DNA of 64,000 bases from assembly GCA_002372275.1 (NCBI GenBank), contig DFFP01000003.1:17851-81850 (forward strand), written 5' to 3'. The notes beneath the pieces are model-generated. The model had not been told where the DNA came from. It worked only from the letters and a program-made list of their open reading frames with translations, and did not search any database. This document shows, piece by piece, positions 23,915 through 27,033 of this stretch (the stretch's first letter is position 1; each line of letters begins with the position of its first letter). A program made the position numbers and the translations under genes. Source of the stretch: Alphaproteobacteria bacterium UBA3773. Lineage in GTDB: Bacteria; Pseudomonadota; Alphaproteobacteria; RF32; CAG-239.

Positions 23915-23961
23915 TTGCTTGTGAAAATCCTTTAAATTATCCTATATTTTGGCTCATCATT

Positions 23962-23970
23962 TGATATAAT
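23962..23970 (+). promoter_or_regulatory. Candidate extended -10 promoter (TGnTATAAT) for the lipoprotein-vWA-PP2C-kinase operon
   Basis: tttgatataat at 23960-23970, about 40 nt upstream of the ATG at 24008. Confidence 0.35.
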
Positions 23971-24007
23971 CATATCACCATAAATTACAACACAAAGGTT
24001 AAAAAAG

Positions 24008-24142
24008 ATGAAACAATCATCATACCCTCTTAAAATTTTTGTTTTATTTTTGCTATGTCTGACCCTCATCGGATGCGGCAAAATGTCAGAACCCACCCCG
24101 ATTGAAGGCAGCGGCTATCCGCACACATATCCGAACTCATAA
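24008..24142 (+). CDS. Small predicted lipoprotein (44 aa) leading the TerY-P-like operon. Too short to appear in the ORF track.
   Basis: MKQSSYPLKIFVLFLLCLTLIGCGKMSEPTPIEGSGYPHTYPNS*. Lipobox LIGC and an RBS-like aaagg upstream. Ends 17 nt before the vWA gene. Confidence 0.4.
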   Translation: MKQSSYPLKIFVLFLLCLTLIGCGKMSEPTPIEGSGYPHTYPNS

Positions 24143-24159
24143 TATAAAAGAGAAATAAG

Positions 24160-24846
24160 ATGACACCCCAAGACAATATAACAGACGAAATGATTCCTTA
24201 TGTCGAGTTTGCCGACAACAGCAACGAGCGCACGCCATGTATTTTGGTTTTAGACTGCTCGGGGTCCATGCGCGGGGAACCGATTAATCAGCTCAACCTC
24301 GGCCTGCAAGCTTTAGAAAAGGAGCTTAAAGAAGACATTGATGCCTCTTCGCGCGTGCAAATTCTCATCATCAAAGCATGCGGCAAAGATGACGAACCCG
24401 TTGTCGCTTCCGATTGGGTCGACGCCATGAATTTTACAGCCCCCACCATGGAAGCCGGCGGTTTAACCCCGCTCGGTAAGGCTATGGATTTAGCCTTACA
24501 AAAAATCGAAGATCAAAAAGATTTATACGATTCCTGCGGTATCTCCTCCAAAAGGCCGTGGATTTTTCTTGTCAGCGACGGTGAACCGACCGATTACGGG
24601 TGGGAACAATCGGCCGAGCGTTGTATTGAAGCTCAAAACAAGAAAAAAGTCATTATTCATGCCATCGGCACCCAAGGAGCAAATATGGAAAAACTTTCTA
24701 AATTTTCCGTTATGAGCCCGAAACGCTTGGTCGGCTTAAAGTTTACGGAATTTTTCTTATGGCTCAGCCGCAGTGTTTCGTGTGTTTCAAAAGCAGCCCC
24801 GCACGCAGACGATCTTTTAAAGGATATCAATGCCTGGAACGAATAA
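24160..24846 (+). CDS. vWA-domain protein, TerY-like, with an MIDAS motif
   Basis: ILVLDCSGSMRGEPI (DxSxS MIDAS), a LTPLGKAMD motif and a VSDGEPTD motif. 228 aa. Confidence 0.75.
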   Translation: MTPQDNITDEMIPYVEFADNSNERTPCILVLDCSGSMRGEPINQLNLGLQALEKELKEDIDASSRVQILIIKACGKDDEPVVASDWVDAMNFTAPTMEAGGLTPLGKAMDLALQKIEDQKDLYDSCGISSKRPWIFLVSDGEPTDYGWEQSAERCIEAQNKKKVIIHAIGTQGANMEKLSKFSVMSPKRLVGLKFTEFFLWLSRSVSCVSKAAPHADDLLKDINAWNE

Positions 24847-25588
24847 AAAAAATATAACCGATATTATTGTGGCCTCCACAACCGGTTTATATCACAAAAA
24901 CAAAGGTCTTCAAAGTCAGGACTATTTTGCTTTTCAAAAAAGTTCTAACAGAATTATTGCTGTTGTCTCAGATGGCGCCGGTTCTTCAAAATACGGCAAA
25001 ATCGGTGCTAAATGTATTTGCGAAACCGTCACGCGCATTTTATCTCGCGGCAATTTAACCCAAATCAAACAAAACATCATCGACGCCATTGAAGCAAGCC
25101 GAGATATTTTACTTTGCCACCGCCTCAACAAATCAAAAAACGAAAACGGTCTCATTGATTTTGCAGCAACTGTCGTCGGCGTTTTAATTGAAAAAGACAA
25201 AGGAATTTTCTTTCACATCGGCGATGGCGCCGGTATTGCCATGCTTGAAAAAAACAGTGATTCCTATGTGATTTCGGAGCCTGAAAACGGCATTTTTTCG
25301 AGCGAAACGTATTTTTATACCATGGATGATTGGAAAGACAGCCTTCGTTTCACATCTTTTATGGGGGCAACGGGTTTATTTTTAATGACCGACGGGGTCA
25401 CAAAGTTTGCCTTAAAAAAAGACGAACGCAGCATCGAAAAAAAATTTTTAACACCGATTGAAAAATATCTCAGAGAAGAAAAAAATGCCAAACGTGCCGA
25501 ACGTGCCTTAAAGAACACGCTTGAAACCCCAAAAGCCACAGCCATTTGTGCTGATGATAAAACTTTAATGTGGATCAAATTAAAATGA
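24830..25588 (+). CDS. PP2C-family Ser/Thr protein phosphatase
   Basis: AVVSDGAGSSKYG, FHIGDGAG and a LFLMTDGV motif match the metal-binding aspartate motifs of PP2C. Overlaps the vWA gene by 17 nt, suggesting translational coupling. Confidence 0.75.
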   Translation: MPGTNKKNITDIIVASTTGLYHKNKGLQSQDYFAFQKSSNRIIAVVSDGAGSSKYGKIGAKCICETVTRILSRGNLTQIKQNIIDAIEASRDILLCHRLNKSKNENGLIDFAATVVGVLIEKDKGIFFHIGDGAGIAMLEKNSDSYVISEPENGIFSSETYFYTMDDWKDSLRFTSFMGATGLFLMTDGVTKFALKKDERSIEKKFLTPIEKYLREEKNAKRAERALKNTLETPKATAICADDKTLMWIKLK

Positions 25589-27033
25589 GTGAGTTTCTGA
25601 TTTACAACGCTATTTTTTCAAACGGTCATTTTGAGCGCACAGCTATGGGCGAGCTCATCAACAAAGGCGGCGGCGCCGGAAAAATATATTCAGTGCCTCA
25701 ACATCCGACGTTGGTTGCTAAAATTTTCCACGACAAAAGCAAAAGCCAAACAAACCGCCAAAAGTTAGAAGCCATGCTTCAAAACAAGCCAAACATTCCA
25801 AATATCGAACGCGGCGGAAAAACTTATGTTCAAATTGCCTGGCCTGAAGCCATTTTAGAGGATGACGAAGGTTTTTGCGTCGGTTATTTAATGCCTTTTA
25901 TTAACACAAGCGATGCTGTTTCGCTTGACCACTTGATGCAAAAAGCCGTCAGGCGCAAACAAAATTTAACCGAAAAATACGAAGATCGATTAGCTGCAGC
26001 ATTTAACGTTACCGCCATGGTGGCTGCCCTTCATCAATGCGGTCACTACATTATTGATTTAAAACCCTCCAATGTTTTTGTTTACAAAGAAAACATGTAT
26101 GTCGCTATGTTTGATTGCGACGGATTTTCGATTAACGGCGAAAACAAAAGGTATCCGGCCGAATATGTGAGCGAAGAATATATTTACCCCGAAGGTCAAA
26201 ATCAAAACCCTGAAGATATGGGGCAATCGCAAGACCTATTTGCACTTGCCGTCATTATTTTCAAGCTCCTTAACAACGGTATTCACCCGTTTTCCGGCAG
26301 TCCGCGCAAAAAAGATTCCGAAATGCTTAGTATTCAAGAACGCATTGACAACAATCATTATGCTTATGGCATGTGGCCGGATAAATATCAGGCCCCTCAC
26401 CCCGACAGCATTCACGAGTACTTCGAGAAAAAGACGCTTGATATGTTTGAAAGAGCATTTTCAAAAGACCCGCATCGCCCCACCGCTAAAGAGTGGTATA
26501 CTCATTTAGATGAGTTAAGTCACAACCTCAAACAATGCAAAAAAAATCCGAATCATGCCTATTTTACAAATAAAGGTTGCGGCTTATGCGCTGTTGAAGA
26601 ACGCGTCAAAATCCGTCTTGATCAAATCAAAAAAGAAAAAACAGAGCCTCAAACCATCAGAGGCCTTAAAATAGATGAATTAACAACCGAAAAAACAGCA
26701 GCTTTTAAAAAAGAGAAAAAACGTGAAACAGCACGTCTTAAAAGGTTAGCGTATTTTTTAGTGATCTTATATATATCTCTTTGGAGCATAGCACCTGTCT
26801 TGCTATACCCTGCCAAAACTTATCTCACGGCACATGGCATATTTATACAAATTTTAGCCTTAACGCTATTTTTAAAATTAGTTTTCATCACGCTTGACAA
26901 AGCGGGAATCTTCCTACCTTTATTGAAAAATACCGTTTTAACCAATATGCTTAAAATTTATGCTGCCCTGATTACTGTTCTAACTTTTTGGATTACAAAC
27001 GAACTTTCATTTGGGTCCTTCAGTATTTATTAA
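25585..27033 (+). CDS. Ser/Thr protein kinase-like protein with a C-terminal transmembrane region. An alternative start lies at 25570.
   Basis: Gly-loop GGGAGKIYSV, VAKIF lysine, catalytic loop HQCGHYIIDLKPSNVFV, DFG-like FDCDGF, and a C-terminal hydrophobic segment LAYFLVILYISLWSIAPVLLY.... ATGA overlap with the phosphatase stop. Confidence 0.75.
   Translation: MSEFLIYNAIFSNGHFERTAMGELINKGGGAGKIYSVPQHPTLVAKIFHDKSKSQTNRQKLEAMLQNKPNIPNIERGGKTYVQIAWPEAILEDDEGFCVGYLMPFINTSDAVSLDHLMQKAVRRKQNLTEKYEDRLAAAFNVTAMVAALHQCGHYIIDLKPSNVFVYKENMYVAMFDCDGFSINGENKRYPAEYVSEEYIYPEGQNQNPEDMGQSQDLFALAVIIFKLLNNGIHPFSGSPRKKDSEMLSIQERIDNNHYAYGMWPDKYQAPHPDSIHEYFEKKTLDMFERAFSKDPHRPTAKEWYTHLDELSHNLKQCKKNPNHAYFTNKGCGLCAVEERVKIRLDQIKKEKTEPQTIRGLKIDELTTEKTAAFKKEKKRETARLKRLAYFLVILYISLWSIAPVLLYPAKTYLTAHGIFIQILALTLFLKLVFITLDKAGIFLPLLKNTVLTNMLKIYAALITVLTFWITNELSFGSFSIY

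Follow-up and report, generated by a model that had tools for sequence, protein, structure and literature searches.

This report concerns four adjacent plus-strand genes in a stretch of 64,000 nucleotides (64 kb; 'the window' hereafter) from contig DFFP01000003.1 of Alphaproteobacteria bacterium UBA3773. They encode a mini-lipoprotein, a von Willebrand factor A (vWA) protein, a PP2C phosphatase and a membrane-anchored Ser/Thr kinase, and they form a real operon. The last three almost certainly constitute a triad of the YegL-PphC-YegI type, also described as TerY-P, which is already known and has a characterized relative in Escherichia coli. As far as the searched libraries and literature show, three things are new: a family of 22-residue lipopeptides obligately linked to the triad, a truncated form of the kinase with three membrane helices, and the occurrence of a triad known from defense and ter contexts as a strongly conserved core module in a gut lineage. 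The features of the locus, taken from the open reading frame (ORF) list, Pfam and BLASTP searches or direct reading of the sequence, are as follows.

24008 to 24142, plus strand: mini-lipoprotein gene, 44 amino acids (aa) (ORF list and sequence reading)
24160 to 24846, plus strand: vWA gene, 228 aa, YegL/TerY-type, cytoplasmic product (ORF list, Pfam, BLASTP)
24830 to 25588, plus strand: PP2C gene, 252 aa, PphC-type (ORF list, Pfam, BLASTP)
25585 to 27033, plus strand: membrane Ser/Thr kinase gene, 482 aa, YegI-type (ORF list, Pfam, BLASTP)
23962 to 23970, plus strand: TGaTATAAT, candidate (extended) -10 element (motif read from the sequence, function putative)
23994 to 23998, plus strand: AAAGG, Shine-Dalgarno-like, 9 nt 5' of the lipoprotein start codon (read from the sequence)
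23360 to 23914, minus strand: thioredoxin-like gene (TlpA/AhpC-TSA), secreted product with a CGPC motif (Pfam)

The order and strand of the four ORFs, as given in an original prediction made for this DNA, agree with both the sequence and the ORF list, and the close coupling it described is readily read from the sequence: the vWA gene runs 17 nt into the PP2C gene, and the ATGA at 25585-25588 joins the PP2C stop to the kinase start. For the kinase, the mechanical ORF list opens at a GTG at 25570, whereas homologs align from the ATG at 25585 (MSEF...). Because homologs begin there, we take this ATG as the start and ATGA as the overlap. Of the extended -10 promoter proposed upstream, the core is the better supported part. 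TGaTATAAT lies 46 nt from the lipoprotein ATG, TATAAT recurs at about -41 to -47 from this ATG in many relatives, and a AAAAGGTTAAAAA block 5' of the ATG is also kept in many relatives. The TG, on the other hand, is not conserved, and the site is missing from the list of a consensus promoter scan because it has no -35 match. Going by the motif and its recurrence, a -10 element of the operon is plausible at this position, while the 'extended' TG part is uncertain. In an Rfam scan of the 64-kb window a tRNA was the single hit; at the operon, neither a riboswitch nor a leader RNA turned up.

The domain assignments of the three larger proteins were borne out by a Pfam hidden Markov model search, in which all of them score above the gathering thresholds (VWA, 1.3e-6; PP2C_2, 9.2e-38; Pkinase, 7.5e-12, with the kinase domain at about residues 20-310). 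The vWA protein has a complete metal-ion-dependent adhesion site (MIDAS; D32-x-S34-x-S36, T103, D140), all of it invariant in an alignment that includes the E. coli and plasmid homologs. In the phosphatase, D31, D48, D132, D188, D242 and D243, the metal-binding Asp residues of PP2C enzymes, are invariant, and D48 corresponds to E. coli PphC D46, a residue that cannot be mutated without loss of activity (10.1101/303594). In the kinase, the residues G28/G29/G32, K46 and E62, the catalytic loop H-Y-I-I-D158-L-K-P-S-N163 and the D177-C-D179-G-F motif are invariant in the clade. The original prediction had named loss of the MIDAS, loss of the catalytic Lys or Asp of the kinase, and a Ter-cluster context as observations that should count against it; the MIDAS is intact, K46 and D158 are in place on alignment, and the surroundings are not those of a Ter cluster, since no TerA, TerB, TerC, TerZ, TerW or TerX homolog was found in the 64-kb window.

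That prediction had matched the locus to the TerY-P triad, which fits the domains and the gene order, while the nearest characterized relative is the E. coli yegL-pphC-yegI operon. There the vWA, PP2C and kinase genes follow in the same order and overlap or abut (NC_000913 map), and by BLASTP the window proteins share 42% identity with YegL (E 3e-49), 26% with PphC (YegK; E 2e-15) and 28% with YegI over 341 residues (E 5e-31). Common to both systems are the MIDAS, a WLSxSxxxxS segment of the vWA protein, the equivalent of PphC D46, and a Cys/His motif in the kinase that is followed by membrane helices and lies within the aligned 341 residues. Differences are found at both ends of the operon: no lipobox ORF lies upstream of yegL, and the kinase termini diverge, as described below. 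The E. coli operon is moreover barely expressed. To the annotated TerY of an IncHI2 ter cluster the window vWA protein is only 32% identical (E 2e-19), the ter-linked PP2C matches at only E 0.001, and the ter-linked kinase does not match the window kinase at all. By the definition in PMC11090510, TerY-P joins a PP2C and a Ser/Thr kinase with a C-terminal zinc ribbon to a TerY-like vWA protein; the window has this same three-component set, with a candidate zinc ribbon after the kinase domain. The known TerY-P contexts are ter, McrBC or DNA-processing, whereas the window block is a chromosomal core element that lacks such neighbors and has gained a lipoprotein gene.

The statement that this type of system has essentially no experimental characterization was too strong. 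The E. coli operon has been studied by Rajagopalan, Nagle and Dworkin (2018) and Rajagopalan and Dworkin (2020): PphC and YegI were purified and assayed, and the membrane topology of YegI was mapped (10.1101/303594; 10.1101/819920). YegI, an active Ser kinase, sits in the inner membrane by two helices, has its N and C termini in the cytosol and autophosphorylates; PphC, a PP2C that depends on Mn, removes these phosphates. Both enzymes prefer Mn2+ (10.1101/303594; 10.1101/819920). The findings on YegI and PphC are restated in PMC13232886.

The window kinase differs from YegI, among other things, in its C-terminal end. After the catalytic domain follows the motif C318-x5-H324-x7-C332-x2-C335 (nt 26536-26589), which is zinc-ribbon-like and invariant in the clade, then a strongly basic linker and three predicted membrane helices at about residues 388-472 (nt 26746-27000). 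In the AlphaFold2 (AF2) model, helices span residues 368-415, 419-443 and 450-471 at a predicted local distance difference test score (pLDDT) of 80-89, hydrophobic segments lie at 388-406 and 419-437, and the protein stops 10 residues after the last helix, in line with the C-terminal multi-helix region noted earlier. The model was built from a 14-sequence alignment, and as the mean pLDDT is 54 for the kinase domain and about 50-57 for the Cys/His region, only the C-terminal helices were used. Neither Pfam nor AF2 indicates any domain after the Cys/His motif besides the linker and the membrane helices. By comparison, YegI has 648 aa and a cytosolic C-terminal helix-hairpin-helix (HHH_5 at E 9e-4, below the gathering score), which was not detected in the window kinase, which ends after its third helix. 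As in YegI, the protein is predicted to be an inner-membrane kinase with a cytosolic N-terminal catalytic domain, because the distribution of basic residues (positive-inside rule) puts the N terminus inside. The C terminus would accordingly lie outside, leaving little of the kinase exposed to the periplasm: a loop of ~8 residues and a tail of ~10.

To see how unusual this architecture is, the wider family is informative. Among 1.84 billion representative proteins, 7124 relatives of the kinase were found, 694 of them at E up to 1e-30. Outside the clade's own representative and its fragments, the matches span residues about 10-345 only, and the C-terminal three-helix module is matched solely by sequences of the clade itself. 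The Cys/His motif, present also in YegI and the plasmid kinases, occurs in the form C-x-H-x-C-x2-C at about residue 310-335 in 142/142 of the best full-length representatives, and 137 of the 142 share the non-RD loop form H-x-x-[IV]-D-x-K-x-x-N. At least one membrane helix after the Cys/His motif is found in 118 of the 142; usually only one helix is present, and behind it comes an extended C-terminal region that varies, in some cases with ankyrin, FG-GAP or Sel1 repeats. Given this distribution of motif and loop, the window kinase is typical of its subfamily in the catalytic part, and it is E. coli YegI, with its atypical VGDxxQxS loop and a DSDS segment in which Ser160 and Ser162 are autophosphorylated, that is divergent. 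In the C-terminal part, by the same comparison, the window kinase seems to have lost a larger domain that its relatives carry. A sequence search of solved structures gave no close relative of the kinase profile.

The most distinctive element of the locus, and one to which the original prediction had given too little weight, is the mini-lipoprotein. Residues 1-22 form a signal peptide with the layout MKQSSYPLK-IFVLFLLCLTL-IG-C (basic n-region, hydrophobic h-region, lipobox of the form [LVI][ASTVI][GAS]C), which by sequence makes it a predicted signal peptidase II substrate with predicted lipidation at Cys23 of the lipobox L-I-G-C. The mature lipopeptide has 22 residues, CGKMSEPTPIEGSGYPHTYPNS (nt 24074-24139). 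A lipobox-like tripeptide precedes the invariant Cys in 74 relatives. In 75 of 76 species the mature peptide counts 22 residues (locus L084, the exception, has 23), with the consensus C-G-K-[MVI]-S-x-P-x-P-[ILV]-E-G-S-G-Y-P-H-[TS]-Y-P-[RK]-x, while the signal peptides vary freely. Among 73 peptides of 22 residues matched by a regular expression, C1, G2, Y15, Y19 and P20 are invariant, and K3, P7, P9, S13, G14, P16 and H17 are each kept in 71-72. At the nucleotide level, the entropy at codon positions 1, 2 and 3 is 0.62, 0.46 and 1.44 bits across 75 lipoprotein genes, and synonymous codons are fully mixed at the invariant residues of the lipopeptide, Ser13 being encoded by both AGY and TCN. These two patterns show that the gene is translated and that purifying selection acts on the peptide.

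Despite this conservation, the family is easily missed in annotation. Gene calls on L001-L003, three contigs identical to the window, omit the 44-aa lipoprotein, while many other assemblies include it. A profile search returned 447 relatives; among the 120 listed, which have 40-70 aa, none belongs to a Pfam family, and the sole name given to lipoprotein relatives is 'hypothetical protein'. For the mini-lipoprotein of the window, too, no Pfam family was found at E up to 0.1, and a literature text search for the lipopeptide motif found no paper. We also considered LptM (YifL), a lipoprotein for maturation of the LPS translocon and the one library match of the mini-lipoprotein, and rejected this identity: NCBIfam model NF047847 scores 15.8 bits against a cut-off of 27.7, and the match covers only residues 5-24, that is, signal peptide and lipobox, and none of the mature part.

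The linkage between the lipopeptide gene and the triad was followed in both directions. Starting from the kinase, a lipobox ORF of 40-55 aa is present upstream of the vWA gene in all 75 loci with enough upstream DNA, the gap to the start of the vWA tblastn match being 4-44 nt (83 nt in L084). Starting from the lipopeptide, a degenerate DNA pattern for the mature peptide was run on metagenome contigs and gave 90 stretches. The vWA gene lies directly 3' of the lipopeptide in 80/80 stretches with enough downstream DNA, two apparent exceptions being split alignments that trace to a homopolymer frameshift and an assembly inversion, and PP2C and kinase were found in 41 of the 42 stretches with enough DNA for both. 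Among the loci examined, the lipopeptide gene and the triad are thus linked both ways without exception. Outside the clade, the lipoprotein is no part of the triad as described, in agreement with the earlier remark: no upstream lipobox ORF was seen in six non-clade triads, namely those of E. coli, three plasmids, L090 and L092. L090, the nearest non-clade relative, has a kinase 48% identical to that of the window and offers just 86 nt upstream of its vWA gene.

It is nevertheless possible, if somewhat doubtful, that the mini-lipoprotein is independent of the triad, as an envelope lipopeptide that merely shares the promoter or as an upstream ORF that tunes expression. Triads outside the clade do without the lipoprotein, gene callers often skip its ORF, and a divergent thioredoxin-like gene is equally well linked (69/71 lipopeptide-anchored stretches), so that tight synteny within the clade is by itself no proof of function. 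Set against this is a two-way linkage that holds without exception in 155 loci despite rearranged outer flanks, and the short gaps to the vWA match indicate co-transcription. A purely regulatory upstream ORF would need neither a lipobox nor a near-invariant peptide of fixed length with saturated synonymous change. Moreover, the lipopeptide appears together with the loss of the C-terminal extracytoplasmic or cytosolic domain of the kinase.

Where the module occurs, and how it evolves, bears on its nature. In a scan of one genome per GTDB species, 254 genomes encode a relative of the kinase, of which the best 80 were analyzed. All of these (54-69% identical) are uncultured alphaproteobacterial metagenome-assembled genomes (MAGs) from gut, rumen or feces, among them Ca. 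Scatocola, CAG:495, and RUG and RGIG MAGs. The locus is thus kept in at least 80 species-level MAGs. The lineage has no cultured member among these, which qualifies the view of the locus as a clean candidate for study: it is one only through heterologous expression. In every locus with enough flank the order is mini-lipoprotein, vWA, PP2C and kinase, in nearly all of them with the divergent thioredoxin-like gene ahead, and ORF clustering over 47 long loci shows that the block persists while the outer flanks are rearranged. Over the 28 species that have all six genes compared, mean pairwise identity is 90% for the vWA protein, the most conserved of the block, 82% for a nitronate monooxygenase-like (NMO-like) protein, 73% for the kinase, 62.5% for the PP2C, 58% for a phosphoribosyltransferase and 55% for the thioredoxin-like protein. 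The block looks like a vertically conserved core chromosomal signaling module and not like a mobile defense island, because the vWA protein evolves more slowly than the products of housekeeping neighbors and the block is fixed across the clade.

This pattern also weighs on an alternative suggested by other members of the triad family, namely that the operon is an antiphage system that senses infection and responds by phosphorylation-dependent abortive infection or DNA processing, the lipoprotein being incidental. TerY-P-like modules adjoin McrBC/CoCoNuT restriction systems (PMC11090510; PMC7699616), and OB-fold variants are reported to act on their own as antiphage systems (Gao et al. 2020, cited in PMC11090510). 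Plasmid triads from Azospirillum, Cupriavidus and Methylocystis (L086-L088), which share the gene order, the overlaps and the Cys/His motif and have vWA proteins 40-44% identical to that of the window, are found in mobile surroundings, with mob genes, HipA, a GIY-YIG nuclease and a DNA methyltransferase nearby. The window kinase has weak PADLOC matches to MkoA, PD-T4-6 and PglW, and in E. coli, DNA damage rises when YegL or YegI is overproduced (10.1101/354589). The clade nevertheless departs from these systems in most respects. The plasmid kinases are YegI-type proteins of 632-648 aa, one with an annotated helix-hairpin-helix, and have no lipoprotein upstream, and the antiphage kinases that were tested are fused to an OB-fold (PMC11090510); the window locus shares the domain triad with both, but its kinase ends in membrane helices, with neither OB-fold nor helix-hairpin-helix. 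In PADLOC, the window vWA protein matches no family even at E up to 10 (E. coli YegL itself matches the TerY model at 0.032 only), the PP2C reaches just 0.0083 with the PP2C model, and the kinase matches other kinase models only. The block lies amid housekeeping genes in at least 80 species, without a patchy distribution, and the slow evolution of its vWA protein is the opposite of what is typical of defense genes. We therefore regard an antiphage role as unlikely.

Carriage by phages was also considered. Two close matches in phage collections turned out to be unannotated 'Bacteriophage sp.' contigs from human feces. The longer of them (L185; MT836238.1, 1-11670, 'UNVERIFIED: Bacteriophage sp.') carries the thioredoxin-like, lipoprotein, vWA, PP2C and kinase genes together with housekeeping flanks, namely an NMO-like gene, a PilT-like ATPase and a peptidase. 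We reject the two matches as evidence of a phage origin; MT836238.1 looks like a bacterial chromosomal contig filed as phage, and it is the only close 'phage' record.

For the vWA protein, Joint Genome Institute annotation calls clade members 'YegL'. The AF2 model shows a vWA fold (pLDDT 77) with a last helix at residues 195-207 and a disordered tail at 209-228. In the C-terminal W-L-S-x-S-x-x-x-x-S segment, S203, S205 and S210 are invariant including the E. coli and plasmid homologs, and in the model they sit where the last helix meets the disordered tail, which makes them candidate phospho-sites, although this is speculation. A Foldseek search with the model returned generic MIDAS vWA domains only, and a sequence search of solved structures gave no close relative (best E 8.6e-6, an unnamed 'conserved protein').

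With its complete and invariant MIDAS, the vWA protein could also be read as the sensor of a cytoplasmic switch that responds to a divalent metal, kinase and phosphatase setting its state and the membrane anchor merely localizing the kinase. Such a switch, metal-sensing and phosphorylation-dependent, is what Anantharaman, Iyer and Aravind (2012) hypothesized for TerY-P, as quoted in PMC11090510, and the preference of E. coli PphC and YegI for Mn2+ would fit it. Neither the window nor the conserved block, however, contains ter or metal-transport genes, and the lipopeptide and the clade-specific membrane module would be left unexplained. A MIDAS is, besides, usually a ligand-binding site rather than a metal sensor. 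We consider this reading improbable.

With little more than even confidence, we favor instead a reading in which the four-gene operon is a Ser/Thr phospho-switch of the YegL-PphC-YegI type that has been extended by a dedicated mini-lipoprotein. By homology with the E. coli proteins, the kinase would autophosphorylate and the Mn-dependent PP2C would reset it. The lipid-anchored peptide would act as an extracytoplasmic co-sensor or regulator of the membrane bundle of the kinase, and the cytoplasmic MIDAS vWA protein would be the output, either as a substrate, phosphorylated by the kinase at a candidate site in the Ser-rich segment 203-210, or as an adaptor that depends on metal and binds a conserved partner in the cell; the extreme conservation of the protein argues for such a partner. 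An extracytoplasmic input or regulator is the most economical role for the lipopeptide, because the kinase has no large C-terminal domain in the very lineage in which the lipopeptide appears. That the lipopeptide with its GSGYPHxYP motif is a dedicated co-receptor or regulator of a kinase devoid of its own C-terminal domain is a proposal we make tentatively.

Several observations weigh against this reading and temper our confidence in it. The link between lipopeptide and kinase rests on adjacency in one clade, which vertical inheritance and a shared promoter could partly explain. When normalized mutual information between lipopeptide and kinase columns was computed across 72 species, neither the membrane helices nor the periplasmic loop and the tail were enriched; the strongest pairs fall within the kinase domain, and the signal is therefore phylogenetic. 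The parts of the kinase that face the periplasm are short and poorly conserved, in contrast to the highly conserved lipopeptide. This mismatch and the lack of covariation both add to the case for a lipopeptide independent of the triad. Under the sorting rules of E. coli, a Gly at position +2 directs a lipoprotein to the outer membrane, from which a 22-residue peptide would hardly reach the inner membrane. In the literature searched there is no report of a phosphorylated vWA protein of the YegL type, and for E. coli YegI no stimulus or substrate is known (10.1101/303594; 10.1101/819920). Finally, the autophosphorylated serines of the YegI DSDS segment align with Cys178 and Gly180 of the window kinase, so that the mechanism of activation may differ from that of YegI.

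We would like to place the proposed co-receptor into the context of better-known envelope systems. Small proteins or lipoproteins provide input to membrane kinases in NlpE-CpxA, RcsF and MgrB-PhoQ and in Pseudomonas aeruginosa PpkA/PppA with TagQRST; there, a small envelope protein or lipoprotein modulates a membrane kinase without a large sensor domain of its own, or cooperates with one. PpkA/PppA comes closest in composition, with a vWA domain and a lipoprotein alongside its Ser/Thr kinase and PP2C, and it controls a type VI secretion apparatus, which has no counterpart here. The likeness is one of analogy: PpkA has its vWA domain in the periplasm as a fusion to the kinase, and none of these systems has a sequence relationship to the window proteins.

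Triads of the YegL-PphC-YegI (TerY-P) type occur widely, from E. coli to numerous plasmids and defense neighborhoods. The clade described here offers a natural variant: strong purifying selection has clearly kept the module as a core function of the chromosome over a long time. Its kinase is stripped to the catalytic domain, the zinc-ribbon-like motif and the membrane bundle, which leaves the obligately linked lipopeptide as the only obvious candidate for an input. This yields testable hypotheses, with the signal entering from the lipopeptide to the membrane bundle and leaving through the vWA protein, and it adds an unannotated mini-protein family to the catalog of small envelope proteins. If the lipopeptide is indeed a co-receptor, the operon would be a core envelope-to-cytoplasm phospho-relay in a lineage of gut Alphaproteobacteria, and a 'defense-type' triad would have been domesticated for housekeeping signaling. 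Should the linkage turn out to have no function, the locus would simply add a further example to an established triad family.

Of the neighboring genes, the thioredoxin-like gene is the most constant. Its product matches Pfam AhpC-TSA (2.5e-13) and Redoxin (9e-13), and the gene divergently adjoins the operon in nearly all loci with enough flank; in the window, 93 nt separate the two. What lies beyond the thioredoxin-like gene differs between loci. This gene may be a fifth component, or a co-regulated or linked gene. Beyond it, most species have the phosphoribosyltransferase gene, which is absent from the window. In many loci, several type-IV-pilin-like genes and a PilT/GspE-like ATPase gene, oriented either way, are found at a distance of a few kb on the upstream side of the block, including L029, L033-L035, L052 and L054, where they are upstream of the thioredoxin-like gene; none is found in the window.

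On the other side, an NMO-like gene follows the kinase on the same strand in 43 of the 47 long loci. It encodes 388-490 aa (median 455; for example L049:7569-8936), and the gap to the kinase gene is 18-380 nt, at least 66 nt everywhere except in L041. Neither the window nor its closest relatives (L006, L010, L011 and L013) have the gene. It was considered as a fifth operon member and set aside for the gap that separates it from the kinase and for its absence here.

The original prediction had also placed the operon next to the ribosomal superoperon. The adjacency is real, with the thioredoxin-like gene in between, and it has no meaning for the module: the S10 and L3 genes occur in no other species' locus, so that the S10-operon neighborhood is incidental and specific to the source species. 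The same holds for the gene downstream of the kinase, which encodes a bPH_2-domain membrane protein (27038-27796, minus strand), is convergent with the kinase gene and was likewise found in no other species' locus; the two stop codons are 4 nt apart, with no terminator-like site between them.

Further along the minus strand, a gene at 28039-28980 encodes a secreted BspA-type leucine-rich repeat protein of 313 aa (LRR_5, 1.5e-9). In related loci it has two matches only, in L011 and L012, which are weak (22-26% identity) and do not adjoin the kinase. At 29365-31248 (minus strand), 2.3 kb from the operon, lies a gene for a 627-aa dCache_1-HAMP-SpoIIE protein, a membrane sensor with a PP2C-type phosphatase domain and thus a second, unrelated signaling protein of the PP2C family. 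A tRNA-Glu(CTC) gene is located at 31674-31748 (minus strand). Over the first 22 kb of the window, where the ribosomal protein operon lies, the G+C content is about 0.42-0.46, and it drops to 0.33-0.35 around 44-56 kb; at 0.40-0.43, the composition of the four-gene operon is not unusual.

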